Origin: Cyanidioschyzon merolae | Taxonomy: Eukaryota | Assembly: GCA_000091205.1 (NCBI GenBank) | Contig: AP006485.2 | DNA: 64,000 nucleotides | Reading direction: 5' to 3' (one strand) | In this document: one piece after another, positions 18,847-62,600 of the stretch | Numbering within the stretch: position 1 is the first letter of the stretch | Layout of the letters: each line of letters starts with the position of its first letter | Position numbers and translations under genes: made by a program | Notes under the pieces: generated by a model | What the model was told of the DNA's origin: nothing | What the model saw: only the letters and a program-made list of their open reading frames with translations | Databases searched by the model: none

Positions 18847-21018
18847 ATGTCGACGGGGCACGCGTGCAGCCGCTCCACCACCAATTTCACGAACGTAGTG
18901 TCACGCCGACGCCGCCGCCGACGCTGCTGCACAGCCGTAAACACCAGCCGCTGCGCGTGCCGATCGCATCCCAGGACGCCACCGTTATTCAGAACGTTTT
19001 CGCAACGTACAAACGCAACTTCCATGTACGAACTGTGTCAACCAACGGGGACTGCTGGATACCCTTATTTTCTCTTTGGATCGCAACAGGATCAGCGTCT
19101 CAACTACAGATCGGTTATTGTGCACCGCGCTGGACTAGCTCAAGAGACGGCTGGCGATGGCGGCGTCAGCACGAGCAGCAGCGCTGAAACCGGGAACAGC
19201 GTCAGCGCTTTGGCGTCAGCAGCCGCAGGGCGTCGTGTCAAGTTTCGGGAGCTGCGTCGAACGAAAATCGTATGTACTATAGGGCCTCCGACGGCCTCTT
19301 ATGAGATGATCAAGGCTCTTGCAGACGCTGGAATGGACGTTGCTCGCTTGAACTTCAGTCACGGGACGTACGAGTTCCACAAGAAAGTATCGGACGCCGT
19401 CGATCGCGTCAATGAGGAGCGTTTTGAGAAAGCTCGTCGAAGGTGGACGTCGCACGACGAGGCACGTGAGCAGTTGACAGACTCCGCCAAATCGGTGGCG
19501 GTGTCTGACGCCGGTCCCCTGCGTACCGAGAGCACGTCAAGCTCCACTGACTCGCTGAATAGTGTGTCGGGCCTCGAGTACAGAAATGACGCTAAGAGCG
19601 CTCTGTATGTGCGCATTGGGAAAATGATGGACTCAAAAGGTGCGGAAGTGCGCAGCGGGGAGATCAACCGAGCGGAGGAGATTGCGAAGCGAATGGTGGA
19701 GCACGGCTTGGTGACCTCCGATCAGGTAACAGAACTCGTGAGCCAAAACACCATGTTAATGCCGGCAGGAAGCTCGCTCGTTCTGCGTTGTACGCATGAG
19801 GCATTTGAGAAGCAGCCGGAACCTCTTGAGGGTGTCGCGGTGAAAGGCTCCGTTTTACCTTTTGCGCCAGTAGTCGGTGTCAGCTATGCGGGATTCTTCG
19901 AGGACACAGCCGAAGGCGATTGTATTCTTGTTGATGGCGGTCTCTTGGAGTTACAGCTGGAGCGCAAGGACGCTGACAAACGGGATCTCATCTGCCGCGT
20001 GTTGGACGGTGGCGAGCTCTCGCCCCGTCGCCATTTGAACATTCGCGGAAAGACGGCGTCGTTGCCCTCGGTTACCGAATCCGATTGGAAGGATATCGAG
20101 TTCGCTGTGAAGGAACTCAACGTGGACTTTATCGCCTTGTCGTTTGTGAATGACGCTGAAACCGTTCACATGGTGCGAGAATTTGTCACGAAACTTGGCT
20201 CGCGGGCGGCGATCATCAGCAAGATCGAGAGCATGAAGGGTGTGCTGAACCTCCCCGCAATCATCGAGGCAAGCGACGGGGTTATGGTGGCGCGTGGCGA
20301 CCTCGGTAGCGAGCTGCCCCTGGAAGAGGTGCCTATCGTCCAGTCCTTCATGGTGCGTCTTTGTCGAGCGGCAGGCAAAGTGGTCATTACGGCCACGGAG
20401 ATGCTCGAGTCCATGATCGAGAAGCCCATCCCGACGCGGGCGGAGGCCTCGGACGTGGCCCATGCCGTGGAGCAGGGCGCCGATGCACTGATGCTCAGCG
20501 GCGAGACCGCCAAGGGAAAGTATCCGATCAGAGCCTGTGCCACGATGCGCCATATTATCATGCGACAAAACGAGCAGCTCATTGCAGACGAACGTGCTCG
20601 TCAGGGGCTGGATCCGATTGCCGGCTTTGCCGAGTGTTGCCGCGACGTGGAGCGTGTATCCGATGCCATGGCCCGAGCAGCGGTCTCTCTGGCGGAATCG
20701 TTAGACGCGGCCGCGATCATCGTCTTCACACGAACGGGCAACATGCCCAAGCGCCTCTCGAAGCTGCGGTCACGAATACCGATCGTTGCTGCGACTGCAG
20801 TTTCCGATATCCAACCGAAACTCTCGCTCTTGTGGAACGTATTCTGTGTAACCATTGAAGTGCAGGATACGTTTGAAGCAACGTTCCAACGCTTCAAAGA
20901 GGAAGTTTTGGCGGAGAACTTTTTACGAAAAGGTGATACGGTTGTGGTGGTACAGAGTGGCATGCGTGGTATCTGGCGAGAACAGGGCCATCATCTGCTC
21001 CGCTATGTGGTAATGTAA
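18847..21018 (+). CDS. Pyruvate kinase with a ~140-aa N-terminal extension and an enlarged B-domain insert.
   Basis: KIVCTIGPPTASYEMIKALADAGMDVARLNFSHGTYEFH (pyruvate kinase N-terminal A-domain). MVARGDLGSELPLEEVP, ITATEMLESMI, ADALMLSGETAKGKYP and a C-terminal regulatory domain. The start is ATG. Confidence 0.8.
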   Translation: MSTGHACSRSTTNFTNVVSRRRRRRRCCTAVNTSRCACRSHPRTPPLFRTFSQRTNATSMYELCQPTGTAGYPYFLFGSQQDQRLNYRSVIVHRAGLAQETAGDGGVSTSSSAETGNSVSALASAAAGRRVKFRELRRTKIVCTIGPPTASYEMIKALADAGMDVARLNFSHGTYEFHKKVSDAVDRVNEERFEKARRRWTSHDEAREQLTDSAKSVAVSDAGPLRTESTSSSTDSLNSVSGLEYRNDAKSALYVRIGKMMDSKGAEVRSGEINRAEEIAKRMVEHGLVTSDQVTELVSQNTMLMPAGSSLVLRCTHEAFEKQPEPLEGVAVKGSVLPFAPVVGVSYAGFFEDTAEGDCILVDGGLLELQLERKDADKRDLICRVLDGGELSPRRHLNIRGKTASLPSVTESDWKDIEFAVKELNVDFIALSFVNDAETVHMVREFVTKLGSRAAIISKIESMKGVLNLPAIIEASDGVMVARGDLGSELPLEEVPIVQSFMVRLCRAAGKVVITATEMLESMIEKPIPTRAEASDVAHAVEQGADALMLSGETAKGKYPIRACATMRHIIMRQNEQLIADERARQGLDPIAGFAECCRDVERVSDAMARAAVSLAESLDAAAIIVFTRTGNMPKRLSKLRSRIPIVAATAVSDIQPKLSLLWNVFCVTIEVQDTFEATFQRFKEEVLAENFLRKGDTVVVVQSGMRGIWREQGHHLLRYVVM

Positions 21019-22778
21019 AGGGACAGAGCGCATGCTCCAGAGGCCCCGGATACCCGCTGACGATCATAGCCGGTGTAAAGAGTGGCGCGGGAATCTTGCG
21101 CTTCCACGGAGCATGATGTTGGCGCGTGCGCTCTCTCACTGAGTCTCTCAGTACCAGGAAGCCAAGCAAAGCGATATGCGCACGGTGCTCGCTTGGTACC
21201 TGGGTGCAGCGTGCGCACGGCAGCGCTGCTTCCCGCACCACTGCCGCCAAAAAACGGAACGGGTCGACGAGCGCGGTCGTACGCGATAACGTTTGGTTCG
21301 CTTATCACATCAATAACACAAGCTTTTCGGCGCTTTTTTCTCTGTGACTGCTTCATGGTATCGTCTCTTTTATTCGGCTTTATATTCGTTGGTCTTTCCT
21401 CTTCGGTAAGCTCCGTTGTCAGCAGTCGAAGGATGTTGATGGCAGCGTGCAACTCCTGATTTCGCTGTTTCCGACTGTATTCCATGCATTTCATGACCAA
21501 GCGGAAGCTTCGACCTACGCTTCTTCTGAAACGAACATCTTCTTCGTTCTATAAAGCATCGGCGTGCTCTTCGCAGCGGGCACACTTGGATCCTGTCAGG
21601 TATACTCATGTTTCGGCCAGAGCGTATTCTACGAGCGGTGTCCCACGGAGCACGAACGCGTGCTTCATCACTCGGAATACATCCCTAACTGGTACAGAAA
21701 AATCCAGTCAATGTCATTCTCCGTCTTCGCGCTCGCTGCCGCACCACAGGATCATGAGTTCTCCCATACTGTTCCTTTGGGCGAGTCCTATGTCTGCTGC
21801 AGACACAAGCGCAGGCTACACCATTCGATAGGTAATTTGTGGAGCTTGATGCTGTGTATCATGGGCAAGCATCGGAATGGCATTGAGTCTTGAGAACGAG
21901 TCCAGAAATACTGATTCGTGTACGCTACCTTCGAGCAAAGTGGTTATGCCCGCGCGACTGGTGCGGATCGTTGCAATGATTAACGTCCGAGTCGGATGTT
22001 ATTTGCGATGCCGAACGAAAACACGGGAGCATCTGGGAGCATATTCCATGACTGGTATCGAGTTCGTGTGGAGAGATATTTCGTCCATGTCGACAAAGAA
22101 GGAAGGGTTTCGTCTGCGAACGGACTCGTTTACTGGACGTGAGAATTTTAGTGAGTTTTCGGCATGAGGTCACGAAGGAGTCGTCAACGTACAAAGTCGA
22201 AACTTCGCTCGCCAATCCAGCGGCGCGAATCTCTTCCCCGTGTTTTTGCTTGAAACGTGGAGATCGTGATCTTGAAATATACGACATTTGAGCATACGAA
22301 ACGTAAATAAAGGAGAAGAATGGAGGCTTGGACCAATGAACAGGATCATGAGATAGGTACTTTTACCGGCCCCTGTTGGAGGATGTCACGAATCATGCCG
22401 ATTCTGGTAACGTAACGATTCCAAACTGCAAAGACTCGAAGAAACCACTGCAAAAGACAAAGAAAACAACGCATCAATCTGTAAACCCATTGTTGATGCA
22501 CATCGAATGCAGTGGCTGTACATCTAGATCAAGCTAGGAGAATATTTCGGAATCTAGGAACAGCGCCAGCAGTTCAGCGCTCCATTCGAACCCCACAAGA
22601 GTCTAGCGTTCAGAGCGGGCACTTTGTCAACGTTTCTACCAAGCCGGCTCCCCAGTTTGACGCGTCGTCAAGAAAGACACACACGCTGTCCAGGCATACA
22701 TTGCAGCAACCAAGCCGTGCGCGACATCCGAAGCGCAAGGCGTCGTAGAGCGCTTTTCCGCCTGGAGACGACGCCTCC

Positions 22779-22915
22779 GGTGGCACTGCGACAGCAACAC
22801 CAAGACGCATTCCAGGGCACGGTGAAGACGATGCCTTCTCTGGAGGCACTGCGACAGCAACACCAAGACGCATTCCAGGGCACGGTGAAGACGATGCCTT
22901 CTCTGGAGGCACATA
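22779..22915. repeat. 63-bp tandem repeat, ~2.2 copies, just downstream of the ERO1 3' end.
   Basis: The unit tggaggcactgcgacagcaacaccaagacgcattccagggcacggtgaagacgatgccttctc recurs back-to-back. Confidence 0.85.
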
Positions 22916-23034
22916 CAGGCTCCATCCAAAGCGGCGCACCAGGCGGGACGCGCACCCCTGCAAGCGGGTGCCGCGTGCAGCGCGTCTCCAGTGGCCGCGA
23001 ATCCAGAGTTGCAAGACGCTGAGCGTCCACATGT

Positions 23035-24864
23035 TCAGTTTCGTTTACGTCGCATAGCGCTGGCACTCCGATGCACCAGTCCACGATAAGCAAGGATCTC
23101 CCCAGCAAAGTGACGCAACAACATGGATCCCAGTCCGCAGAGAATCGCCGCAGCGAAGCACAACCATAAGCGTTGTTTCTTGGTCTCCTGGACGATCATC
23201 CACTCCATTTCATGGATACTTCGGATGGAAAGACAGAGATTTTTCAGCAAATTAACCAAGGCTACTACTTCGTTACGCGTGATGCGCATCTCCAAGCGAC
23301 GAGTCGACACACTGGATAAGGACTCAGCGAAGAGAATCTTGAAGGCCGTTCCGAGTCCGAGGAACTGAAGCTTCCCCCAGAGACGACATTTTTCACAGCC
23401 GACGCAGTCCATGATCTTGCTGATGTTCCGAAAGTGAGCGCGGAACTGTACGAGGCAGTCTGCACAACAGCCGCGAAACATCTCGTTTTCGGCAAAAGGC
23501 ACGGCGCAATCGGGAACCGTGCCACGAATGAGTGGATTCTCCAGAACTCGTTCCAAAAGCTCCTTGGTTTGCATGTCCTCGGTTTCATTGCCTGTCCAGT
23601 AATCTGAACGCTGCAAGAGCAGCGGTGCGGCTTGATTCATTGCCCGCAGAGCCAGCGCATACACAAAGTACAGGTTCTCAATGCGTTCCGGATAGTAGCG
23701 CAGCCGCTCCCGATACAGGCGTGTGTTGTAGCCCCAGCGATTCCGTCCGAACAGGTAGCGACGGGCAATGTGGGCATTAATCGAGGCGTGGATACCGCTG
23801 ATACAGCGGTAAAACACGCGTTCTTCTCGGCACCCGGCAGGACGCACTGGAGCCAGAGTAGAAACCGAGCCTTGGCGAAGCAGTTGTTCGGCGACGCTGC
23901 CGGCTGCGTCACCGCTCAGGCATGGAAGCGGCCGAAAACAGTTCTCTCGGTAAACCGCATCCCATATGTGCTGGCCCTGGTATCCTGTGAAGCCTTCAGG
24001 ATTCAGCGCCAGGTCTACGTATTCGGAGAGCTCATCGCTATCGGGCGCTGTCCACGCGGACTCGTCCTCCAGTGCATAGGGCGAGAAAAAAGGCGGCAAC
24101 GCCTGTGATCCCCTCGGGCGCTCTACACGCCCTAAGGTTGCTTCCTGCTCCCCACGCGGGTAGTCAGCGACGGGGAAGGTTCTCGTTTGCTCTGTTTGGA
24201 GTACCTGAGACTCGTCGCGGCGCCAGACGGCTGGGATCAGCTCCGGATCACAGACTAGAACCGAACAGTCCGGTTTGGTGCACGTTGCAGCTGTGCCGCC
24301 CCAAAAAGGACACGCCTTGGAAAGATCGACTTTGAAAATTCGAAAATAGAGGCTCGAAGTCAAGCACGTAAGGTCATGACACAGCGACTCGCGTTCAGGC
24401 AGGAAGCTGTACCGTGTCAACGAGTCGTACGTGCACTTGGTATCACTGGGCGAGGTCCCGAGTCCCAGTCGCTTCAAGGAGTACAAATAACGGTAAGTTG
24501 AGGCCGGATCATGTTCACTCCCTATAGCCTGAAAGCTTTCCGGTGAAATTATGACGCAGATGCAGAGCAAGCAGGCAAGCGTGCCCGTCAAACGCGTCGC
24601 GTGGAGCCGCATAGAGGAGCAGTGCGCTCGGTAACCGTACCAGAACGCTTCTATCACCCCAAGTCCAAGTATGTTGGTTAGAGTGATGGAAACAGACCAA
24701 TCTATAGATCGAAACCTGCGCCCTCTGATAATAATCACGAGCCAATGACCGTTCCTTTTACCGTGTGGCTCGTACTGCCAACTGGAACGAAAGCAGAAGC
24801 GCACGCGCCCGAGTGCATCCTGCCAAACATGCGCGCAGGGCGTGCAAGAGAACTGGCGAGTCAT
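23035..24864 (-). CDS. ERO1: Endoplasmic reticulum oxidoreductin ERO1.
   Basis: CVGCEKCRLWGKLQFLGLGTAFKILF (ERO1 CxxCxxC active site), ...FRGCCADCLVQFRAHF..., and an N-terminal hydrophobic/signal region. The start is ATG (MTRQFSC). Confidence 0.8.
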   Translation of the reverse strand: MTRQFSCTPCAHVWQDALGRVRFCFRSSWQYEPHGKRNGHWLVIIIRGRRFRSIDWSVSITLTNILGLGVIEAFWYGYRAHCSSMRLHATRLTGTLACLLCICVIISPESFQAIGSEHDPASTYRYLYSLKRLGLGTSPSDTKCTYDSLTRYSFLPERESLCHDLTCLTSSLYFRIFKVDLSKACPFWGGTAATCTKPDCSVLVCDPELIPAVWRRDESQVLQTEQTRTFPVADYPRGEQEATLGRVERPRGSQALPPFFSPYALEDESAWTAPDSDELSEYVDLALNPEGFTGYQGQHIWDAVYRENCFRPLPCLSGDAAGSVAEQLLRQGSVSTLAPVRPAGCREERVFYRCISGIHASINAHIARRYLFGRNRWGYNTRLYRERLRYYPERIENLYFVYALALRAMNQAAPLLLQRSDYWTGNETEDMQTKELLERVLENPLIRGTVPDCAVPFAENEMFRGCCADCLVQFRAHFRNISKIMDCVGCEKCRLWGKLQFLGLGTAFKILFAESLSSVSTRRLEMRITRNEVVALVNLLKNLCLSIRSIHEMEWMIVQETKKQRLWLCFAAAILCGLGSMLLRHFAGEILAYRGLVHRSASAMRRKRN

Positions 24865-25270
24865 TCCATGTTGACGGAATTTCGGAAAAGGTTTATATAG
24901 ATATAGAAGAGAAAGCTCACGAGAACTGGCGAGTCATTCTTTGTTGACGGAATGTCGAAAAGGTTTATATAGATATAGAAGAGAAAGCTCACGAGAACTG
25001 GCGAGTCATTCTTTGTTGACGGAATGTCGAAAAGGTTTCTATAGATATAGAAGAGAAAGCTCACGAGAACTGGCGAGTCATTCTTTGTTGACGGAATGTC
25101 GAAAAGGTTTATATAGATATAGAAGAGAAAGCTCACGAGCACTGGCGGGTCATCCTTCGTTGATGGAATGTCGAAAAGGTTTCTATAGATATAGAAGAGA
25201 AAGCTCACGAGAACTGGCGAGTCATTCTTTGTTGATGGAATGTCGAAAAGGTATACATAGATATGGAAGC
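24845..25270. repeat. 72-bp minisatellite, ~5.9 copies. It begins inside the ERO1 start-codon region and extends upstream of the gene.
   Basis: The unit atatagaagagaaagctcacgagaactggcgagtcattctttgttgacggaatgtcgaaaaggtttatatag repeats with few substitutions. The first partial copy encodes the ERO1 initiator (reverse complement atgactcgccagttctc = MTRQFS). Confidence 0.9.
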
Positions 25271-27090
25271 ATTCATTTACGAGCGCAGGTGCCTCGTTCT
25301 TTTGTTGATCAAAAGACTAGGGCGTGAGCCAGAGCTTCAAGAATACGCGGCTGCTACTGGCAACCACGAAAGAGAGCGCCGGTAAATGGCAGAAGTCTTT
25401 AGAGCGCACAGGGCCCCACACCAGTTTCCCTGTTCGCATACAGCGTTGATCGCTCTAGCAGCATTTGATCGCTGGGTTTCGAGCGTCATAGAAGCGCTCC
25501 CAGCAACACTGGATACATCGGCACCACCGAGAACGCTATCCGAATATAGAAAAACTTTGCAGTGTCTGTGCAGGCATCGACTCGAAGGCGTGTCGCGGTG
25601 TATTTGTGCAGGTCTGCGGCCTCCTCGGTGGCGAATGCTGCCTCTCACTACTGCCGCCAGAATCAATGTTCGGTACGGATGCGCATGCCTCGGCGACTCG
25701 GAACGTTCCTAGTCTAGCACAGGGATTGCCAGCCATGCTCCTTGCTTAGCGGCAATGCCGAAAGCGAGTCGTTGACCAACATGAGCGCCAGCGCCAGAAA
25801 CGCGTCCGCTTATCCGTCAGCCAGTTCGTCCGTCCGTTCGTCCCAATAGCGACCGCCGAGGTGCGCAGGCGCGCTCTTCTCGGAACGGAGACACCCTGTG
25901 CGATTCATTGTATGTCAGATCCGGAAGATTCGCTGTTCGAAAATTGCATGCATGTCTCGTGCGACCATGCAAAATATTTTGTGGTATGCAGAGCGCTCAG
26001 TACGCTGAAGGTTTAGCGTCACATTCGATGAGGTGCATCAAATGATGCAAGCAGCGTTCGTTCGCGTCGAGCGTCACGAAGAAGTATGAGCGTCGTTTCC
26101 CATGAAAATCGATCAGTGAAAGCGTTTTCATGGAAAAGGCTCGGAGCGCACAGGCGGCATCATCAGTCGCAGCATCCCTGACACCGTATCCCTCGCAACG
26201 ACGGATTATATGCTACCAACGTTTTCGACGCGCTCGGTGCGGGTGAAATGTGGTCTGCGATGGAATCAGATGCATACCGGATACGATCTGAACGCAGGAC
26301 ATATACAAGATGAAGCAAGAATAGAGCGGTATTCGTGCTCGCTGTCCAGTTGATGCCGCGTTTGATGCGCTTCTGTCCATATTCGAAGAGCACCCACTTG
26401 CAGGTGACGAATGTAGTGCAGCACTTCGCGAAAGAGGTCCAGAGCACCGTCTAGGTAAAAAACGGAAGACCGTAGACGTTCACGACCTCACCAAACGATG
26501 CAGTGAGGGTTCTGCTCTAGCCTTGGGGCAGCTCCTCGGCCGTAGAAAGCTCAGTGCGTCGTTCGGGCGGTTAGCGACGATACCCAAGGTACCCGCTCTT
26601 CAGCGATCACGTCGATGGACGCTCGCTCCGCTGGGTCATCATCGTCGGTTGCTCGTATGCGTCGAGATGTGGCGCAAACGCTGGCATGCTTGCAACGCAC
26701 ATCTCGGAGCAAGGCTCTCCTTTGAAACGCTTCTAGTGCTCCGAATAGCAAGAGCCTCCAGGGTACGCGTGCCCGACAAAGCCAACGTGAAGCGCAAGAA
26801 ACCACGGAATGGAGCAGCTAGAGATCGATCACAGCGGCAGGTCCGGTTTCGGAGCAACGAGCAAGTCGGAAACGAACCAGAACGGATAGCGCCAAGCGCG
26901 GTGAGAGGCTTTCGCTGCCACCTACACGAAGCTGCGTACGTAAAGCGTGCATTGCACGCCCAGACACTTTTGCTTCCTGGGCTGCGACCGGCGCGTTTTC
27001 TTTCGTGTGTCCAGCCTTCACGCGTATACCCTGTCACGCACGTGCGCTTGAGTGCTGGTAGCCGAAGCGAAGGCTTAGGCGCCCAAGATC

Positions 27091-28746
27091 ATGAAGAGGC
27101 TCGCCTCCCACTGGAGCCAGGCTCCGAGGTATCCAACACTTTGGATACAAGCCGCGCAGTGCTCAAGAAGCGCCGCCGTGTGGGTGCGTGTGGGTCCCGT
27201 GTCGCGCACTGCAAACGACCCGGAGGTCATGAAGGGTCACCGAGTTCCGCTGAAGGCCTTCCGGGCCCTGGTGCAACGCACTGCACGCCCGGGCGACGCA
27301 GTGCTCGGTCACTTGCCAGCGCGCTCGTGTATGCAGGCGAGGCGCTGGTACCCTGGCCCAAGCAAACCACACTGGGCCACCGATACTCCGCTAGCGGCAG
27401 GGACGGGCTTCAGCTGGCCGATGCGGGAGCGACGATCACAAAAACGTCGCCAGCGGGCCTGTAGGTACAGTACTGTGCTTCGAAACTGTGACGAGCGCCA
27501 AGCAATACCATCCTCCTCCGCAAAGGCCGCAGAAAACTTCTTCCGAGGCTCAGCGGAGACCAGCGCCGACACCGACCCGGACGAAGGCGGCGTTCCAGAG
27601 TCAAGCTTCACTGTGGATGCGTTTATGGCACCAAAACCTACGCGAATCGATCGAGTGCTCACGGATCGCTTCAGTGAGCCGTCGCGCACGTACTTTCAGT
27701 ACCTCATTACGCAGCGAGCAATTCAAGTGAATGGTCGCGTGGTCCACCGCAAGTCGGAGCTCGTAACGCAGGATGATGTCGTGCATGTTCGCTTCCTGCT
27801 TCCGGAAAACAGCGCTGCACAGGACCTAGTGCCAGAGCATCTGCCGATTGATGTGTTGTACGAAGATGGGGATATTTTGGTCGTGAACAAAGCCGCGGAT
27901 ATGGTGATCCATCCGGCCCCGGGGAACTGGCGCGGTACGCTAGCAAACGCCTTGGCATATCGTTTCGGGAAAGGGGCTGCAGAGGCATCGGCCGCCACTG
28001 TCGAGCCGTCCACCAAACCAGACAGCATCGGAGCAACCGTCGATGCCGACAACGACACAGTGCATGGTGATGAAATGGTCTCCCGAGATTGCGCCTTACG
28101 ACCGGGCATCGTCCATCGCCTGGATAAGGGCACCTCCGGGGTGCTCGTTGTCGCGAAACACAATTTCGCAGAACGCCGCCTCCAGCGCGCTTTCGCACAA
28201 CGCCAAGTGTACAAAGAGTACCTCGCCGTCCTGGCGGGCACACCTCGTTGCCTACAAAATGGACCTTCTCTGGTCGAGCTTCCCATTGGACGCAGCACCC
28301 ATCGATGGATCGAGCAACGCGTCCAAAGCGTCGCGCAAGGCGGCCGCGCTGCGCGCAGTCGCTTCGAAGCGCTGGCGATGCGCCCGTCGATAGCGCCGCT
28401 GACGCTGACACGTGTGCTCATTGAAACCGGGCGCACGCATCAGATTCGCGTGCATGCGCGCTACGGCCTGCAAGCGCCCGTGCTGGGCGATGATCTGTAT
28501 GGATTTCCGGCCTGGAATCAGCGCTATCGGATGCGTGCGCGGCGTCCGCTGCTGCATGCGTGGCGTCTCGGCTTTCGACATCCATGCACCGGCAAGTGGT
28601 GCGTGTTCGAGGCACCGCTTCCAGAAGATTTCAGATATTTCGAGAAACTATTGCAGGTGCGCTGGGCAGAGGTGCCGTCGACTGAGGAGCTTCGAGCACG
28701 CTCAGAAGCAGGTGCAGATAACAGTGCACCGCGCGATCGAATCTAG
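27091..28746 (+). CDS. RluA-family pseudouridine synthase with an S4 RNA-binding domain. It has a long N-terminal extension, so the true start is uncertain.
   Basis: S4-like IDRVLTDRFSEPSRTYFQYLITQRAIQVNGRVV. Catalytic HRLDKGTSGVLVVAKH. HQIRVH near the C-terminus. Confidence 0.7.
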   Translation: MKRLASHWSQAPRYPTLWIQAAQCSRSAAVWVRVGPVSRTANDPEVMKGHRVPLKAFRALVQRTARPGDAVLGHLPARSCMQARRWYPGPSKPHWATDTPLAAGTGFSWPMRERRSQKRRQRACRYSTVLRNCDERQAIPSSSAKAAENFFRGSAETSADTDPDEGGVPESSFTVDAFMAPKPTRIDRVLTDRFSEPSRTYFQYLITQRAIQVNGRVVHRKSELVTQDDVVHVRFLLPENSAAQDLVPEHLPIDVLYEDGDILVVNKAADMVIHPAPGNWRGTLANALAYRFGKGAAEASAATVEPSTKPDSIGATVDADNDTVHGDEMVSRDCALRPGIVHRLDKGTSGVLVVAKHNFAERRLQRAFAQRQVYKEYLAVLAGTPRCLQNGPSLVELPIGRSTHRWIEQRVQSVAQGGRAARSRFEALAMRPSIAPLTLTRVLIETGRTHQIRVHARYGLQAPVLGDDLYGFPAWNQRYRMRARRPLLHAWRLGFRHPCTGKWCVFEAPLPEDFRYFEKLLQVRWAEVPSTEELRARSEAGADNSAPRDRI

Positions 28747-44705: not shown

Positions 44706-46694
44706 ATGTTTGCAGTACCGACACTGCAGAGCAGTCGGAAAGGACGCTTTTGGGGAACCACACCCGCTTTCCCAGGGAGACCGCCTGTAGCGCACCTACC
44801 GCTGCCTGTGTGCTGCTGCAGCACAAGGACTGGAACTGGTGACCCCGCGGACCCCCTCGAGTCATTCCTGGGTCGAGTGCAAGCAGCGCCCGCCCTGCGC
44901 GGACTCCAAGCGGCCGATGCGTCCTGGAAACGCCTCCAACAAACCGGGTCGGCCGCAGTCGGTCCACCAGAAGAGGTCGTAACTTGTTGTCGACAACCGG
45001 AGGCGCGACATACGAAGCCGAGTGATTTCGATGTCGTTGTGCTTGGCGGAACGCTCGGCATCCTAATCGGGACGGCTTTACTGCGACGCAACTCGCGTTT
45101 GCGCGTCGTCGTTGTCGAGCGTGGGGCACTCCGCGGCCGCGACCAAGAGTGGAACACCAGTCGGCGAGAGCTGGAAGTGCTCGTTGCAACCGGCGTGCTC
45201 TCGCATGAGACGCTTGAAAAGGTTATCCGTTCGGAGTGGAGGTCCATGCGTGTGGGTGTCGAAGCGGCTGCTTCGAGGAGCTTACCCGACCTTTCCACAT
45301 TCATGGTGCAAGACATTTTGAATATCGGCGTATCACCGCGCGCCCTCATCGACGAAGCGCTTGCACAGTTCACGGAGCTAGGTGGTCAAGTTTGGGAATG
45401 GTGTCAGTTTCAGGGCGCGGAGACCAATGGCAGAAACGTACTTGTGCGTCTCGAGTGCGTTCCGGGTACCGTGCAGCGTCCTGCAGTGGCCCTCGGAGCC
45501 GGTGGCGATCAGGCTATCCTGGCGACTCCACTGTTTCGGACGTCGATGACGGCTGAAAGTCGATCAAGGGAGCGCTCCTCAGAACCGATTCGTAAGCAAA
45601 TCCGGGCATCCTTGGTACTGGATTGCATGGGTAATGCCTCACCGATCGTGCGGCAACAGCGCGAGCTCGTGTATGGTCAGAAACGGCCAGACGCAGTGTG
45701 TATGGTGGTCGGCTCGTGCTGCAGAGCGCATCCCGGGCACGATCCCTTTCCTGATAACACCTCTGGTGACCTGATCTATTCCTTCACAACGGCCTTATCC
45801 TCGAACCGTCTCCAGTATCTGTGGGAGGCGTTCCCGTCGGACGCGGGGAGCAATCGCACAACCTATTTGTTCACGTACTTGGACGCAGATGCACGACGAG
45901 CGATCACTTTGACGGATCTCTATCGAGACTACTTGGGCTTGTTGCCGGTTTATCAAGGAGGGCATGCGTTTCATCGTGGTGATCGCGCTTTCCTAGACCG
46001 CTTGCAGCCACAACGAGCCCTGTTCGGTTTCTTCCCGGCCTACGAGAGGTATGCGCCACTGCCGACTGCATTGGATAACGTCCTTCCAATCGGTGATGCA
46101 AGTGGTGTTCAATCACCGTTGTCTTTCGGGGGTTTTGGTGCAATGCTTCGCCACTTACCGCGTCTGGTCGACGCCATTTGTGAAGCGCTTGCTGCTGAGG
46201 CACTCAGTGCCGAGGATTTGCGTTGCATCCAGCCGTATTTGCCATCTCTGTCGGTGACGTGGTTGTTTCAACGAGCGCTTTCGTATCGAGTTCCTTCACG
46301 AGCTTCACAGACGCTAGACGAACGAGTTGTGAACGAGATTCTGGGATGGAGCCTCCTTACCATGCAGGATGACGAGAGCGCATTGCGGCCGTTTCTCCAG
46401 GATGTCATCCAGTTTCCGGGACTGGTGCGCACGCTAGCTCGAACTACCGTGCGCGTGCCTGCTCTCGTGCCGCGGATCCTGGGTCATATTGGTGGACCCG
46501 TGCCACTCCTCGGCTGGCTGCGGCATTTGATGGCACTTGGTGTCTATGATCAAGCAAGTCGCCTCTTCCATTCGGAAAGCGCGCTGTCTTCTTTCATCGA
46601 TGCTCGTCTGAAGGACCCGAAAAAGCGATTCCGATGGCATCGACAGCTCGAGGCGTGGCGTTACGGAAGCGGCCGTGATCTGCACATCGACTAG
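44706..46694 (+). CDS. FAD-dependent oxidoreductase of the lycopene-cyclase-like family, with an N-terminal presequence.
   Basis: N-terminal dinucleotide-binding fold DVVVLGGTLGILIGTALLRRNSRLRVVVVERG. Downstream IGDASGVQSPLSFGGFGAMLRHLP resembles the conserved GDAAG..P.tG segment of lycopene cyclase/geranylgeranyl-reductase-type flavoproteins. The exact family is not resolved. Confidence 0.5.
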   Translation: MFAVPTLQSSRKGRFWGTTPAFPGRPPVAHLPLPVCCCSTRTGTGDPADPLESFLGRVQAAPALRGLQAADASWKRLQQTGSAAVGPPEEVVTCCRQPEARHTKPSDFDVVVLGGTLGILIGTALLRRNSRLRVVVVERGALRGRDQEWNTSRRELEVLVATGVLSHETLEKVIRSEWRSMRVGVEAAASRSLPDLSTFMVQDILNIGVSPRALIDEALAQFTELGGQVWEWCQFQGAETNGRNVLVRLECVPGTVQRPAVALGAGGDQAILATPLFRTSMTAESRSRERSSEPIRKQIRASLVLDCMGNASPIVRQQRELVYGQKRPDAVCMVVGSCCRAHPGHDPFPDNTSGDLIYSFTTALSSNRLQYLWEAFPSDAGSNRTTYLFTYLDADARRAITLTDLYRDYLGLLPVYQGGHAFHRGDRAFLDRLQPQRALFGFFPAYERYAPLPTALDNVLPIGDASGVQSPLSFGGFGAMLRHLPRLVDAICEALAAEALSAEDLRCIQPYLPSLSVTWLFQRALSYRVPSRASQTLDERVVNEILGWSLLTMQDDESALRPFLQDVIQFPGLVRTLARTTVRVPALVPRILGHIGGPVPLLGWLRHLMALGVYDQASRLFHSESALSSFIDARLKDPKKRFRWHRQLEAWRYGSGRDLHID

Positions 46695-47085: not shown

Positions 47086-47283
47086 GTGCAGGTTCACGTG
47101 GAAGCGACCTTGCACTGCAACCACGTATGGTGCCTGATACATATTCCAATGCTGCAGGTTCACGTGGAAGCGACCTTGCACTGCAACCACGTATGGTGCC
47201 TGATACGTATTCCAAGGCTGCAGGTTCACGTGGAAGCGACCTTGCACTGCAACCACGTATGATGCCTGATACGTATTCCAAGG
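47086..47283. repeat. 66-bp tandem repeat, 3 copies, in the convergent intergenic region.
   Basis: The unit gcaggttcacgtggaagcgaccttgcactgcaaccacgtatggtgcctgatacatattccaatgct occurs three times with a few substitutions. Confidence 0.85.
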
Positions 47284-54335: not shown

Positions 54336-55979
54336 CTATCGGGTATGGCTCAATTTGGTGATGATTTTGGAAGCTGTACGTGGGCGGGCCAATTTCGGGG
54401 GATTTCCCAAGTCACTGAGCTCGGCTTGGGTGATAGTTCCACGTTCGAGCAATTCCAGGCGAGCTATTCGACGCGCTTTCAGAACGGGTGCGAGGATGCG
54501 CATCACTCGATTATCGGATGTGGCCTCACCGGGGCCATCCCATGCTGCGAGACGGATACCACAGGTTGCCTCGATCGCTTGCACAAGTGCAATATCGTAC
54601 TGCGTGACCATGCTTAGCGCTTTACCGGGTCGGCCGGCTCGCGCTGTTCGCCCGACTCGATGTACGTAAACGCTGACATCCCGCGGCACATCGAAATTGA
54701 GCACGAGATGAACTTTGGGAATGTCGAGGCCGCGTGCGGCGAGATCCGTGCAAACAAGGATGCGGTGTCTGCCTGATTTGAAACCCTGCAGGGCCGCTAT
54801 CCTTTCAGGCTGTGATAGTCTACCATGGAGGGCGCCAACCGGCAGCCCGAGTCGATCCAAAATGCTCGCAAAAATCGCACACTGGGCACAAGACGCGGTG
54901 AACACCATGGCAAGCACCATCGAGGCGCTACTCGACTCGATCGTCGGTGATGATCGCGACTCAGACCCGTCGGTTTCGCCATTCGGGAACCTGGTATGCG
55001 CTCCAAGTGCCGTGGCTTCCATTGATCCGTTCGTTTCGTCGCGTCCGACGTGGTCATTGTCAGCGTCGTCGTTGTCTTCGTCAGCGGTGCGGGCCTCGCG
55101 CTGGCGCCGACGGCGTCGCAGCATCTTGAGGACGGCGTCCTCTCCTGAACCGACAACGTGCAGCAAGACGTATGCGGCATATACATCTCGGATCGCGGCC
55201 GGAACGAGAAGGTAGTAATGCTTCAGCGACGCCACTGTCGCGTAGATCCCCTGGTCAGTGAGTCCTCGATTCGCGTCAAATGCAAATACCTGGGATCCGT
55301 CGGTTTCCGCCACGACCAGTTGCTGAATGCGCTCCATCTGTCGCGACATTGTAGCAGAAAATAGGAGCGTACGACGCGTTACGGGTAACGCACCCAACAG
55401 TGTCGCCAGGTCTGCCGCAAAACCCTCTTCCAGGAGACGATCTGCCTCGTCAAGCACCAGGAACCGCAATCTGCAAAAGTAGCGACAGCGCTGACTCCCT
55501 TCTGGCCGTCTACGCGGGAGCAAAGTCTGATCAGCTGCTTGCTGCTGCCGAATAAACGCTGCAAGACGCCCAGGCGTTGCCACGAGAATGTGTGGGCGTT
55601 CTCTTTCCAGTACAGTGGTCTGGTGCACCGCATCGAGGCCGCCTACAACCGTCTCAACTCTGACGCCTACTCGCGACCCCAGTGCGAGGGTTTGTTCCGC
55701 AATCTGCGCTGCTAGCTCCCGCGTTGGCGTCAGAATCACCGCAAATGGCCCGCAGGGATCACGAACCAACAACTGAAGAATTGGCAACACGAAAGCGGCA
55801 GTTTTCCCAGAGCCTGTTTCAGCGGCTCCAATGACAACGCGGTATCGCTCGTTGAGTACTGCTGGAATGCACGCCTGCTGGATAGGGGTAGGTCGTTGCA
55901 ACCGAAGCGCTTGACACGCCTCACACAAGGACGGCAACAGACCCAAACCAGCGAAAGTCTGCGTTTGATCTAGAGCCAT
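54336..55979 (-). CDS. DEAD-box ATP-dependent RNA helicase, with an acidic/basic insert between the helicase lobes.
   Basis: Q-motif region FAGLGLLPSLCEACQALRLQRPTPIQ. AETGSGKT, PTRELA, VLDEADRLL (DEAD), SAT, HRVGRTARAGRPG. The track start 56012 is TTG; the start is moved to ATG 55979 (MALDQTQTFAGLGL). Confidence 0.8.
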   Translation of the reverse strand: MALDQTQTFAGLGLLPSLCEACQALRLQRPTPIQQACIPAVLNERYRVVIGAAETGSGKTAAFVLPILQLLVRDPCGPFAVILTPTRELAAQIAEQTLALGSRVGVRVETVVGGLDAVHQTTVLERERPHILVATPGRLAAFIRQQQAADQTLLPRRRPEGSQRCRYFCRLRFLVLDEADRLLEEGFAADLATLLGALPVTRRTLLFSATMSRQMERIQQLVVAETDGSQVFAFDANRGLTDQGIYATVASLKHYYLLVPAAIRDVYAAYVLLHVVGSGEDAVLKMLRRRRRQREARTADEDNDDADNDHVGRDETNGSMEATALGAHTRFPNGETDGSESRSSPTIESSSASMVLAMVFTASCAQCAIFASILDRLGLPVGALHGRLSQPERIAALQGFKSGRHRILVCTDLAARGLDIPKVHLVLNFDVPRDVSVYVHRVGRTARAGRPGKALSMVTQYDIALVQAIEATCGIRLAAWDGPGEATSDNRVMRILAPVLKARRIARLELLERGTITQAELSDLGNPPKLARPRTASKIITKLSHTR

Positions 55980-56149
55980 CTGAACTGGCAACGCCCGCTG
56001 TTTGGTGCACAAACCTTAGACTCGTACCAACCAGTTGCTGTCAGTTGGAGAACTCCACCGCTGAACCTCATATCCGAGAGCGGCACGAATCGCACGCTGC
56101 GCCCCGCTGAACTGGACGCGAAAACAGAGGTGCAGGAGGCGGCATCGTC

Positions 56150-56580
56150 CGATGACGCTGCCCGATGGCGATGCCATGTCATCGAGCGTCATCATCGTCA
56201 TCGAGCAGCAGCAGAAGCATCATCATCGTCATCATCGTCATCGAGCAGCAGCAGAAGCATCATCATCATCATCATCGTCATCGAGCAGAAGCATCATCAT
56301 CATCATCGTCATCATCGAGCAGCAGCAGAAGCATCATCATCGTCGTCGTCATCATCGAGCAGCAGCAGAAGCATCGTAATCATCGTAATCATCATCATCA
56401 TCATCATCGAGCAGCAGCAGAAGCATCATCATCATCATCATCATCGAGCAGCAGCAGAAGCATCATCATCGTCGTCGTCATCATCGAGCAGCAGCAGAAG
56501 CATCATCATCATCATCATCATCGAGCAGCATCATCATCGTAATCATCGTCATCATCATCATCGAGCAGCAGCAGAAGCAG
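56150..56580. repeat. Compound trinucleotide minisatellite [(CAT/CGT)n-CGAGCAGCAGCAGAAG]n, ~11 irregular units, in the helicase/GlyRS divergent intergenic region.
   Basis: Blocks of catcatcatcgtcatc alternate with gagcagcagcagaag. The poly-Ser/His/Ile ORFs overlapping it are repeat artefacts. Confidence 0.85.
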
Positions 56581-56883: not shown

Positions 56884-58830
56884 ATGCAGCGCCGCTTCGA
56901 TCGTAAGTCTTTTGATAGGGACGCTTTTGAGACGGTGCTGCGACGCCGGTTTTTTCTTGCGCCCGCGTTTGAAATCTATGGCGGTGTTGCGGGTTTGTTT
57001 GACTACGGGCCCCCGGGGTGCGCCATGAAGAACCATCTCATCCAGTTATGGCGGGATCATTTTGTTGTGGAGGAGGGCATGCTGGAGATCGACGGACCGA
57101 CGCTGACACCTGATCCGGTTTTGCGAGCCTCTGGTCACGTTGATCGTTTCCAGGACTACATGGTTCGCGATCTCGACACGGGCGCCTGTTACCGAGCTGA
57201 CCACCTGCTGCGGGAGACCCTGGAGAACCGCATAGCCGCGATGGATCGGAAGCGCACCGATGTACAGGAAGACAGGCTGCGATCAGCAATGGAGACCTGC
57301 TTGCAGAGGATAGACGAAATGAATCAGGAGCAAATCGCTGCTGCATACCAGCAGTTCGATATCCGTGCACCAGAGTCAGATGCACCACTTTCTGCTCCAT
57401 ATCCATTTAATCTCATGTTTCAAACACAGATAGGACCGACGGGAACGATACCAGCATATTTACGGCCAGAAACAGCCCAAGGCATCTTTGTGAACTTTCG
57501 TCGCCTCCTGGACTACAACAACGGACGCATGCCGTTCGCGTGTGCGCAGATCGGTCTCTCCTTCCGGAACGAGATATCTCCGCGAGCAGGTATTCTGCGC
57601 GTGCGAGAGTTCGCTCAGGCTGAAATCGAACATTTCGTTCATCCGGATCGGAAGGACCATCCAAAGTTCAACCTTATCGCTGACCTGGAGCTGATTCTGC
57701 TCCCACGGAAGGAGCAGCACGCCGCTCGCTCTCGAGAACAGATGACAACCGTGCTTCTTCGTGCGGCGGAAGCAGTTCGCCAAGGCATTGTCGACAACGA
57801 GACGCTGGCCTACTTCATCGCGCGAACGCAACAATATGCCCAAATGATTGGGATTCTGCCCAATCATATGCGTTTTCGACAACATCTGGAGAGTGAAATG
57901 GCCCACTATGCCCGGGATTGCTGGGATCTCGAAGTGGAGACCTCGTACGGCTGGGTGGAGTGCGTTGGCCTCGCGGATCGTGCCTGCTATGACCTGCAGG
58001 CGCATTCCGCGGCTTCCAAGGTGGATCTGGTCGCCTATGAAAAGTTCGACGAGCCACGTGACGAGACGTTCCTCCAAATCACACCGCTCAAACGGGTTAT
58101 TGGAACGAAGTTTCGCGGTGAAACACCGCAGGTTTTGGAAGCCATCGAGAAACTGGGCGAAACCGAGCGTGCACAGCTTCAGCAACAGCTCACTGACCAG
58201 GACCAAGTTCAGCTGGGACCCTACGTCATCACACGGGAAATGGTGACGATCGAACGGGTGAATCGCAAGATTCACGGCCGCAGTTACTGTCCCAGCGTCA
58301 TTGAGCCCTCGTTCGGCATCGGGCGACTGTTGTACTGTGTTCTGGAGCATGCGTTCTACAATCGAACCGGTGGCGATGAATTGCGCACCGTGTTAGCCTT
58401 GAAACCGGCAATTGCACCGGTGAAATCCGTCGTCCTGCCGTTGAGCAAAAATGAGGTATTCGAACCCGTGATACAGGCCGTCTTGCATGCGCTCGCAAAA
58501 TGCCGTCTGACGGTGCGCCTCGACGAAAGCAACGTGTCCATCGGGAGGCGATACGCACGCGCCGATGAAATCGGGGTGCCCTTCTGCGTCACCATCGATT
58601 TTGATTCGCTGGTGGATCACAGCGTCACGCTGCGTGAACGGGATTCCATGGAGCAGGTACGCGGCTCCGTTGGGGATGTGGTGCGCGTGCTTGTCGAGCT
58701 GGTCACTGGAGAGCGGAGCTGGACGGAGCTGGTCTCCACGGATCCGAGCCTGAAACCGTTCACCGGTCAACAGAGTACGAGTGCTGTCGAGGATGGCACG
58801 GTTTGCGAGAAACCTACGCAATCGGCTTGA
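56884..58830 (+). CDS. GARS: Glycyl-tRNA synthetase (eukaryotic/archaeal dimeric class II type).
   Basis: RRFFLAPAFEIYGGVAGLFDYGPPGCAMKNHLIQLWRDHF, TLTPDPVLRASGHVDRFQDYMVRD, FRNEISPRAGILRVREFAQAEIEHF, SYCPSVIEPSFGIGR and an anticodon-binding C-terminus. The start is ATG. Confidence 0.85.
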   Translation: MQRRFDRKSFDRDAFETVLRRRFFLAPAFEIYGGVAGLFDYGPPGCAMKNHLIQLWRDHFVVEEGMLEIDGPTLTPDPVLRASGHVDRFQDYMVRDLDTGACYRADHLLRETLENRIAAMDRKRTDVQEDRLRSAMETCLQRIDEMNQEQIAAAYQQFDIRAPESDAPLSAPYPFNLMFQTQIGPTGTIPAYLRPETAQGIFVNFRRLLDYNNGRMPFACAQIGLSFRNEISPRAGILRVREFAQAEIEHFVHPDRKDHPKFNLIADLELILLPRKEQHAARSREQMTTVLLRAAEAVRQGIVDNETLAYFIARTQQYAQMIGILPNHMRFRQHLESEMAHYARDCWDLEVETSYGWVECVGLADRACYDLQAHSAASKVDLVAYEKFDEPRDETFLQITPLKRVIGTKFRGETPQVLEAIEKLGETERAQLQQQLTDQDQVQLGPYVITREMVTIERVNRKIHGRSYCPSVIEPSFGIGRLLYCVLEHAFYNRTGGDELRTVLALKPAIAPVKSVVLPLSKNEVFEPVIQAVLHALAKCRLTVRLDESNVSIGRRYARADEIGVPFCVTIDFDSLVDHSVTLRERDSMEQVRGSVGDVVRVLVELVTGERSWTELVSTDPSLKPFTGQQSTSAVEDGTVCEKPTQSA

Positions 58831-60658: not shown

Positions 60659-62089
60659 CCAGCCCTAGTTGTGTTGGGTGAACACCCAAAATAGGTGCGT
60701 GTGCCTCGTCCATGACATGCCGACATGAGTGCAGCGACGTGCATGCGAGCGTCCGTTTCGCCACCTCCTGTCTGTGTCACGCACGAATCGCACCGCGTTC
60801 GTTCCTATCATGAACGACGTTCGATACCACATGTGTACAGCCTATTCATGAATGCTCTTCGACTGAGCGCAGCTCACTTGAACCTTGCAGCGTAGCGAGG
60901 TATACGCGTTAGACGAGGCGTTTCGGAACGAAACGAATCCGAGGCGTCGCGCTGCACGACACGTGCCGTCGTGCACGTGTCCTTGAATCGGAACCTCCCT
61001 CGTGCAGATATTCTCGATGGCGATCACAAGTTGTTGGTATGGAAAATCGCTTGACGAGAATGCTCTCCTTATTTTTTTTGCCAGAGACGCTGACCAGAAA
61101 TGGCGAGGCCTCCGACTACGACGATGCTGCGACAGTAAAACGCAGCCACTAGTCTCGGTTACTTGTTTTGTATTGCGAGACACCCGGGATTCGCGCGACA
61201 CCTGCACGGGTGTCGAGGCAAAGAACGTGTTTCGGTTAGAGGGTCGCAATTCTTGGCGCTCCGTCGACATGTTGTGGATCATCACAGGGCCCGGACAACG
61301 CTGATGCGCACCATGCACGCTGCCAGAACGCTACCCTCATCGCTCAGGGCGGCACGCGGTTTTGCCGTCGGGGTATGACGTATCCGCTGAGCGGTTCCTG
61401 CTGACGTAGTTCAGAGTGTTGCAAAGAGGACCCTCAATGTTACGGAAAATCCAGGTGCGCCCCAAGCCAAGCGGTAAGCTACCTGCTGTTGCCATGCCGG
61501 TCCCAAGAACCAGGTGTTTCATTCGATGACATGGGAGAACCCCATGGAAGCCTCGATGCAACCCAGGGTCTCGTTCGTGCGCGTCTACGATAAGCGATTC
61601 AGCTCGAGCGGTGGATAACAGGCCGCCTGGACGTATGGCAGACTGAGAACGACAAGGAGTTCCGCTCCTTTTTTTTGCTACGGGCGAAGCGCACACCATC
61701 CCTATCACGAACAGAGAAGTCGTTTTCCAGAGTCCCCCAGACGCCCCAGTGCTGTCACCAGCAGAGGAAGCGACCTCAGCGCATCAGTAGCTGATTGCGC
61801 ACGCCACCAGGCATAGCCCACAGCTCCGAAACGAGAAAGCGGTATGGCGAAATACTGGATTCTGGAAGCACTCGATCTTCATTTGATCATGGATAAATAG
61901 CGAGTCAAGTTAGCGTCTCCAATGAACACGAACAGTTCCAGTAACAACGAGAGAAATCTCAACGCGTCGGCAGATACTTGCATATGCCACCGAGTCGATT
62001 CGTCAAGTCTCCCTCACAGCACCGCCTAGAGACTCGCGCGGAAACAATGTTCCGCGTTCCGCGCATCCCGCCAGCCTATGCCTCTGGAC

Positions 62090-62480
62090 AGTAGCCAGCG
62101 TATCCGGCGGGTATCACTATACAAATTCCTAGTGACAAAATGCTAACAGTAGCCAGCGTATCCGGCAGTCGTTATCATACAATATCCTAATGACAAAATG
62201 CTAACAGTAGCCAGCGTATCCGGCAGGTACCACCATACAATATCCTAATGACAAAATGCTAACAGTAGCCAGCGTATCCGGCAGTCGTTATCATACAATA
62301 TCCTAATTACAAAATGCTAACAGTAGCCAGCGTATCCCGCAGTCGTTATCATACAGTATCCTCATGACAAAATGCTAACAGTAGCCAGCGTATCCCGCAG
62401 TCGTTATCATACAGTATCCTCATGACAAAATGCTAACAGTAGCCAGCGTATCCGGCAGGTACCACCATACCAATGAGGAC
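62090..62480. repeat. 58-bp minisatellite, ~6.7 copies, immediately upstream of and running into the 5' end of the peroxiredoxin ORF.
   Basis: The unit agtagccagcgtatccggcagtcgttatcatacaatatcctaatgacaaaatgctaac has a variable 12-bp core (gtcgttatcata / gtaccaccatac / ggtatcactata). Each unit contains atgacaaaatgctaa and aatgctaacagtagcc ATGs. Confidence 0.9.
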
Positions 62481-62600
62481 GCTGCCCATTCGCACTGCGA
62501 TGACGCAGCGCCTCGATACAGGGCAGCGCTGCATCTCCAGCTTTTGGGCGCTTCGCTGTTGCTCTGCGCTTCGCGAAACGCCTTCGTACCCACGGAGCAA

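Follow-up and report, generated by a model that had tools for sequence, protein, structure and literature searches.

A hypervariable non-coding minisatellite upstream of ERO1 in Cyanidioschyzon merolae

The stretch of Cyanidioschyzon merolae DNA analysed here (64,000 nucleotides, hereafter the window) contains a tandem array upstream of the gene for ERO1, and each unit of the array carries an ATG in the orientation of that gene. A first-pass annotation of the window placed the ERO1 initiator in the unit closest to the gene, which would make the other units a series of upstream ORFs (uORFs) in the 5' leader, with copy number tuning translation. The locus therefore raises the question of whether the array belongs to the ERO1 mRNA or to the DNA in front of it, and the answer depends on where the coding sequence and the transcript begin.

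The array and the ERO1 start codon

The annotated repeat of about six head-to-tail copies of a 72-bp unit is confirmed. Tandem Repeats Finder (TRF) recovered one array with a period of 72, 5.8 copies, 94% matches and no indels (score 737), and a 43-nt unit probe gave four matches at no more than one mismatch, with an expectation of zero from 100 shuffles. The head-to-tail arrangement and the unit length, within roughly 10-100 bp, are those of a minisatellite or VNTR. The array lies in the intergenic DNA between two divergent genes, ERO1 on the minus strand and a pseudouridine-synthase gene on the plus strand, and its G+C content is 41%, versus about 55% in the surroundings.

Read in the sense direction of ERO1 (minus strand), the unit is GTGAGCTTTCTCTTCTATATCTATA[T/G]AAACCTTTTCGACATTCC[G/A]TCAACAAAGA-ATGACTCGCCAGTTCTC. 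The minus-strand motif ATGAC[T/C]CGCCAGT[T/G]CTC is found at 25225, 25153, 25081, 25009, 24937 and 24864, giving spacings of 72, 72, 72, 72 and 73 along the array. Units of the window were cut in the minus-strand register GTGAGC...GTTCTC and are listed with the other features in Table 1. The copy next to the gene, previously described as partial, proved to be a complete unit of 73 bp, and it is the distal edge unit that is degenerate.

Table 1. Features of the ERO1 locus and further minisatellites in the window (positions are those of the window).
Feature	Position	Strand	Basis or remark
ERO1 coding sequence, 525 aa plus stop, as in the C. merolae 10D reference	23035..24612	-	protein identity, Pfam
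84-codon upstream ORF extension	24613..24864	-	open; codon usage non-coding-like, no Pfam match, no hydrophobic N-terminus
ATG-free 203 nt immediately upstream of the Met85 codon; predicted 5' leader within	24613..24815	-	ATG scan
Proximal-unit ATG, first ATG of the 609-aa longest ORF, in ERO1 frame	24862..24864	-	probably not initiator
Minisatellite, 72-bp, 5.8 units	24848..25269	-	TRF, unit dissection
Unit e, 73 bp, proximal	24848-24920	-	unit dissection
Unit c	24921-24992	-	unit dissection
Unit d	24993-25064	-	unit dissection
Unit c, second occurrence	25065-25136	-	unit dissection
Unit b	25137-25208	-	unit dissection
Unit a, diverged distal edge unit	25209 to about 25281	-	unit dissection
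TATA-like TATATAAA, proximal unit	24892..24899	-	consensus resemblance only; 35 nt upstream of unit ATG, 287 nt upstream of Met85 ATG
6-codon frame ATG ACT CGC CAG TTC TCG TGA, first upstream copy	24917..24937	-	sequence; uORF only if DNA transcribed
6-codon frame ATG ACT CGC CAG TTC TCG TGA, second upstream copy	24989..25009	-	sequence
6-codon frame ATG ACT CGC CAG TTC TCG TGA, third upstream copy	25061..25081	-	sequence
Variant frame ATG ACC CGC CAG TGC TCG TGA, fourth upstream copy	25133..25153	-	sequence
6-codon frame ATG ACT CGC CAG TTC TCG TGA, fifth upstream copy, distal edge unit	25205..25225	-	sequence
Minisatellite, 63 bp	22775-22912		ERO1 3' flank; single-copy in other strains
Minisatellite, 66 bp	47087-47283		
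Minisatellite, 58 bp	62088-62458		before 1-Cys peroxiredoxin gene

The six-codon ATG...TGA frame expected in every upstream copy is present in all five, that at 25153 being a sequence variant, and the G TGA that ends each frame comes from the next unit. In these five units the ATG and its in-frame stop are separate from the main ORF. The proximal unit has TCT TGC instead of TCG TGA, and its frame continues through TTGCACG, so that its ATG is open into ERO1 and begins a 609-aa ORF (23035-24864). At position -3 the unit ATGs have A or G, a good context, and the ATG of codon 85 of the long ORF (Met85) has T.

Two other ORFs span the array (128 aa on the plus strand, 115 aa on the minus strand), and both owe their existence solely to the fact that 72 is divisible by 3. 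As units of 72 and 73 bp are mixed among alleles, no frame through the array is conserved; the dismissal of the 128-aa ORF as a repeat artefact was thus borne out by the 73-bp units that break its frame elsewhere. A Pfam search of both ORFs gave nothing above threshold. The one sub-threshold match, to Kazal_3 (23.7 bits against a cut-off of 26.2 bits), is treated as noise of the repeated Cys/Arg pattern, and we rejected these ORFs as genes. Searches for RNA genes with Rfam (permissive mode) and a tRNA scan gave no matches in 24400-27200 or 21000-27200.

In order to place the start of ERO1, several lines of evidence can be compared. The ERO1 domain (PF04137, E = 8.7e-100) covers model positions 4-354 of 354 and residues 163-550 of the 609-aa ORF. 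The C. merolae 10D protein (XP_005535255.1/BAM78969.1, 525 aa, encoded on a chromosome of 481,791 bp), which was found in the 90%-identity cluster of the 609-aa ORF, is identical to ORF residues 85-609 at 525 of 525 positions, so that the window comes from 10D or from a strain nearly identical to it. Met1 of the closest distinct orthologue (P0002, 525 aa, 69% identity) aligns to Met85, and at the orthologous locus (L001) a TGA lies two codons 5' of the ATG. ERO1 is an enzyme of the ER lumen and requires an N-terminal signal peptide. The N-terminal hydrophobic segment falls at the position of Met85 in eight of eight aligned ERO1 proteins, and a signal-peptide-like hydrophobic core is found after Met85 only, the highest Kyte-Doolittle mean of any 12 consecutive residues among the first 40 being 3.14 from Met85 (MRLHATRLTGTLACLLCICVIISPESFQA) versus 0.27 from Met1.

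The 84 codons upstream of Met85 score as non-coding DNA does. With log-odds trained on twelve long ORFs of the window, their codon usage amounts to -0.107 per codon, while every in-frame 84-codon window of the coding sequence reaches at least 0.025; intergenic windows have a median of -0.156, and 39% of them equal or exceed the score of the extension. Stop-free windows of 84 codons are found at 10% of intergenic positions and frames. The reference protein, the orthologue alignment, the hydrophobic segment, the codon usage and the commonness of open stretches of this length together indicate that ERO1 very probably starts at Met85 (window position 24612, minus strand) and not at the proximal-unit ATG. 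With this start the array ends 235 nt upstream of the ERO1 ATG and does not reiterate the start-codon region, as had been proposed, and the presumed initiator MTRQFS marks merely the first ATG of the longest ORF.

It is very improbable that the 609-aa ORF is nevertheless the real product, that is, a lineage-specific ERO1 with an 84-residue N-terminal extension starting in the repeat. No close strain has a stop in the frame, and automated gene calls give 609 aa (620 aa in the single-copy allele), but these strains are too close (about 99%) for a kept frame to be meaningful. The extension is missing from the curated reference and from all homologues, its codon usage and length are what non-coding DNA commonly offers, and no signal peptide is present at the Met1 N-terminus. 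All three of its variable sites among close strains (G19K, S57P and I60T) are non-synonymous, although three changes are too few to carry weight.

Three further minisatellites are located within the same 64 kb (Table 1). The array before the 1-Cys peroxiredoxin gene has the same geometry as the ERO1 array: the first ATG of the longest ORF of the gene lies in the last repeat unit, and the AhpC/TSA domain begins at residue 64. Given these additional arrays and the peroxiredoxin parallel, intergenic minisatellites and ORFs running into them look general for this genome rather than special to ERO1.

Copy number among populations

Copy-number variation had been predicted for this array, and array length in other populations bears the prediction out. 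The comparison set consisted of 20 or so metagenome contigs from C. merolae-like populations with flanks about 99% identical to the window, gathered by exact-protein look-ups and one pattern scan of metagenome contigs. Unit counts were limited to contigs holding both unique flanks, and all non-reference copy numbers are those of short-read assemblies. We found one unit in L008, two in L023-L025 (three samples), three in L004-L007 (four samples), four in L018 and L020, six in the window, seven in L022 and eight in L019 and L021 (two samples), so that copy number differs between populations, as in a VNTR. The pattern scan of the metagenome collection did not find the unit pattern outside the ERO1 locus.

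The order of units differs as well. With one letter for each distinct unit variant, the window reads a b c d c e, L022 f g h c i j k, L019 l m b n h o e e, L018 f g o e, L004 l q n, L023 f r and L008 s. Eight unit maps built from 22 unit variants differ from one another, showing the variant interspersion that is characteristic of VNTRs, and several alleles were recovered again from independent samples. Since both the order and the sequence of units differ, these alleles represent distinct haplotypes and not collapsed forms of one another. The range of 1-8 units, the different maps and the mixture of 72- and 73-bp units identify the locus as a hypervariable non-coding VNTR.

That the array length in the window, or the differences between contigs, are an artefact of collapse or expansion during assembly is scarcely credible: several contigs do break inside the array (L002, L003, L009, L010, L012 and L016), as is expected for short reads, and every non-reference allele comes from such an assembly, but the 10D genome is a finished one, 100% complete and based on BAC and Sanger data (PMC1955436), the same allele recurs in independent samples, f g o e is no sub-path of l m b n h o e e, and the single-copy junction of L008 shares about 12 nt with any internal join, which is too short for k-mer collapse. 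Simple assembly collapse as the cause of the copy-number differences was rejected on the strength of the differing unit maps.

At the orthologous locus of the 69% relative (L001) no tandem repeat was found, and local alignments of that locus for similarity to the unit or the leader scored at shuffle level. We therefore regard the array as restricted to the C. merolae lineage. Its presumed source is the sequence that L008 carries once, although L008 may alternatively be a secondary contraction. If a single-copy ancestral sequence of this kind expanded to an array, unequal exchange or replication slippage would have changed the array length thereafter, and alleles of 1-8 units with differing variant interspersion would be the outcome.

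Transcription start and possible functions of the array

From the proximal-unit ATG to Met85, ATGs occur at 24864, 24830 and 24818 only, and the last 203 nt before the start codon contain none. An ATG-free stretch of this length is found in 3% of shuffles and in 8% of equal-length intergenic windows (P about 0.03-0.08). The orthologue at L001 likewise has 192 ATG-free nt before its start, with neither a repeat nor a uORF there. 5' leaders are typically depleted of ATGs. Published maps of transcription starts, TATA boxes or 5' UTRs were sought for C. merolae, and the literature gave only one putative transcription start, about 165 bp upstream of the ATG of a single gene (PMC12989068); TATA boxes and start sites were still unknown for any endogenous C. 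merolae promoter in late 2025 (PMC12770821). An exact-protein look-up of the 525-aa reference for transcript-derived contigs returned no record. Together, the ATG-free 203 nt and the precedent of a leader of about 165 nt suggest that ERO1 transcription starts downstream of 24815, outside the array. Three short contigs (L009, L010 and L012; 2.3-2.7 kb, ERO1 only) begin inside the array, and the array would be transcribed if their samples are metatranscriptomes.

We consider it probable that the array is a hypervariable, non-coding, promoter-proximal minisatellite with incidental ATGs, most likely situated upstream of the ERO1 transcription start. The main ERO1 transcript would begin within the ATG-free 203 nt, downstream of the array, and the array would be promoter or upstream DNA. 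The ATG of every unit would be there incidentally, and that of the proximal unit would share the ERO1 frame by chance over 84 stop-free codons, which misleads longest-ORF logic. Any effect of the array on ERO1 would be transcriptional, through the number or spacing of TATA-like and other sites, and not translational.

A refinement of this explanation, rather than an alternative to it, is that core-promoter or transcription-factor sites (TATATAAA; TGACG-like GTCAAC/TTGACGG) increase in number with the units and that copy number thereby sets ERO1 transcription, a possibility that we regard as rather doubtful. At 235 nt from the Met85 ATG, the array end is within promoter distance of the gene, and the array is strongly polymorphic in an otherwise 99%-identical background. 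TATA-like motifs occur among the units in the forms TATATAAA, TATAGAAA, TATGTATA and TATGTAAA, units other than the proximal one having TATATAAA or TATAGAAA and other alleles TATGTA[T/A]A. A comparison of 18 distinct internal unit variants shows that 15 columns out of 73 are variable and that the first 24 nt are invariant. However, the TATA-like (TATAGAAA, TATGTATA) and the TGACG-like (CCATCAAC) motifs both vary between units, and invariance within an array is explicable by homogenisation alone. Because the exchanges that change copy number also homogenise the units, the pattern of unit conservation decides neither way on function. In addition, the window has four minisatellites in its 64 kb, two of which are located in 3' regions, and this points to a general mutational phenomenon. 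Copy number might have a modest effect on transcription here, as in the promoter repeats of yeast and the VNTRs of human, but this is conjecture.

The serial-uORF mechanism of the first-pass annotation, in which part or all of the array lies in the ERO1 5' leader and 0-5 identical six-codon uORFs (1-7 in other alleles) allow copy number to tune translation, requires transcription to start within the array or farther upstream, and appears unlikely. Several features speak for it: all internal units of all alleles seen have both the ATG and the TGA with an intact frame between them, the unit ATGs have a favourable -3 context, and natural variation in copy number exists. The TATA-like motif of each unit could also start transcripts in the next downstream unit, and some short contigs begin inside the array. 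If the spacing of TATA-like TATATAAA to the start is the classical 25-35 nt, a transcript would begin at or just before the proximal-unit ATG, which speaks against a start downstream of the array. Nevertheless, the proposal rests on a mis-assigned initiator, and the ATG-free stretch starts only at 24815. A transcript that includes the proximal unit would carry the open in-frame AUG at 24864, giving ERO1 without its N-terminal signal peptide, and the AUGs at 24830 and 24818 as well, with a roughly 32-codon uORF from 24830; signal-less ERO1 or strong repression would be expected, which looks deleterious for a protein of the secretory pathway. The uORF part of the unit is no better conserved than the rest, as three of the 21 positions of the ATG...TGA frame vary among the 18 internal variants (ATG and TGA always being kept) whereas the 24 positions that make up its first third are all invariant, and unit-to-unit variation gave no signal of selection on the uORF. 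Finally, the orthologous locus has nothing comparable.

The two mechanisms could also be combined in stacked modules. Each module would join a six-codon uORF to a TATA-like box and a start about 30 nt downstream of that box, so that every added unit would supply a further upstream promoter and one more uORF. We judge this combination improbable.

Comparison with known repeats and implications

The ERO1 array resembles classical hypervariable minisatellites in its head-to-tail unit of 72-73 bp, its 1-8 copies among populations and its non-coding nature; moreover, unit variants are arranged differently from allele to allele, and divergence is greater in the edge unit than in internal units. It differs from them in its setting, a very compact, repeat-poor algal genome of 16.5 Mb, and in base composition. 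Human hypervariable loci are G+C-rich, whereas the ERO1 array is AT-richer than its surroundings.

Polymorphic repeats in promoters provide a second comparison. The INS VNTR and the MAOA-uVNTR are human promoter VNTRs, and unstable tandem repeats are reportedly found in yeast promoters (Vinces et al. 2009). MNS16A is a further human promoter VNTR (PMC5438627). Like these, the ERO1 array is a polymorphic repeat a few hundred bases before a start codon, with potential factor-binding or TATA-like sites; in contrast to them, copy-number-dependent expression is only conjectural for ERO1.

Leaders with several uORFs, as in GCN4 and ATF4, and the 28-bp VNTR in the 5' UTR of human TYMS offer a third. 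On paper, the ERO1 locus is similar to the former in having several short upstream ORFs before the main ORF, and to the latter in that output could depend on the number of repeat units close to the 5' end of the gene. In contrast to those systems, the frames in the ERO1 array are identical repeat copies and not conserved distinct elements, their membership of the mRNA is only putative, and the orthologue has no comparable feature. Furthermore, GCN4, ATF4 and TYMS avoid a last copy that is in frame with and open into the main ORF, which the ERO1 array has.

These observations serve as a warning that longest-ORF calls in the C. merolae genome extend into minisatellites located upstream: a length of 609 or 620 aa is given for the 525-aa ERO1 by JGI and other automated callers, and the peroxiredoxin gene at 62430 is affected likewise. 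The array is also a hypervariable marker (1-8 units in a 99%-identical background) for typing hot-spring populations of Cyanidioschyzon. Should the stacked modules be real, the 1-8 units would set the output of ERO1, and with it of oxidative protein folding, as a dial that is both transcriptional and translational, and the 1-Cys peroxiredoxin array would hint at recurrent tuning of redox genes in hot-spring algae. If copy number does alter ERO1 expression, the locus would be an easily testable case of repeat-driven variation, in an organism with homologous recombination, a finished genome and published ribosome profiling; RNA-seq and ribosome footprints of C. merolae 10D are public (GEO GSE273424, cited in PMC12989068).

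Minisatellites in the window and the array next to the peroxiredoxin gene

The window contains four minisatellites, although the genome is described as repeat-poor. One of them lies directly upstream of the gene for a 1-Cys peroxiredoxin in a geometry identical to that of the 72-bp array upstream of ERO1 (24848-25269), and both arrays adjoin redox genes. The last 58-bp unit holds the first ATG of the longest peroxiredoxin reading frame (MLTVASVSG...), but the true start is likely the methionine at about 62601 (MSRALLINDVAPDFEA), approximately 140 nt 3' of the array. The long triplet-rich repeat also has an alternative score at period 40.

Repeats and the peroxiredoxin reading frame (window positions)
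Feature	Position	Strand	Period and copies	Matches	Remarks
Tandem duplication	22775-22912		63 bp x 2.2		120-260 nt past ERO1 stop codon
Minisatellite	47087-47283		66 bp x 3.0	97%	about 400 nt 3' of ORF 44706-46694 (+)
Imperfect CAT/CATCGT-type repeat	56179-56579		period 3, about 112 copies	79%	flanked by ORFs 54336-56012 (-) and 56884-58830 (+)
Minisatellite	62088-62458		58 bp x 6.4	91%	immediately 5' of peroxiredoxin gene
1-Cys peroxiredoxin ORF	62430-63269	+			AhpC-TSA domain from residue 64; 1-cysPrx_C

Further variation at the ERO1 locus

The 63-bp duplication in the 3' flank is a second length polymorphism of the ERO1 locus beside the upstream array. In the metagenome strains (e.g. L004 and L022, contigs with three and seven array units) this sequence is single-copy, since the overlap between the BLAST pieces is 86 nt on the query as opposed to 26 nt on the window; TRF likewise identified no repeat there in those strains. 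At the other end of the gene, the array unit nearest ERO1 carries the variant CAACATGGAATGACT, which creates an additional two-codon frame, ATG GAA TGA, overlapping the ATG of the unit (window 24818-24864; 4001-4051 in L008, the single-unit allele). In L008 the in-frame ERO1 ORF extends to a more distal ATG on its 5' side, and its length according to the gene caller is 620 aa.

Short ERO1 contigs from JGI samples

Contig L011 (JGI 3300050388, Ga0506598_005096; 2.4 kb), which carries ERO1, has a 5' end unrelated to the window. Its nucleotides 1-128 code for MSKRGRGGAAGTKFRCTLGLPVG, which we take to be similar to the N-terminus of ribosomal protein uL14/RPL23, and they meet the ERO1 leader at window position 24787 via an 11-nt common string, TTCCAGTTGGC. 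This contig may be an assembly chimera, or it may have arisen by template switching during cDNA synthesis. The latter origin would make the sample a metatranscriptome and would extend ERO1 RNA to 175 nt or more upstream of Met85, the favored ERO1 start. Three other contigs of 2.3-2.7 kb (L009, L010 and L012; JGI 3300050376, 3300057248 and 3300050390) have ERO1 as their sole gene; the contigs start about 2.4-2.5 units into the array and end 380-740 nt 3' of the stop codon. The ERO1 array would be transcribed if the samples behind these three contigs are metatranscriptomes.
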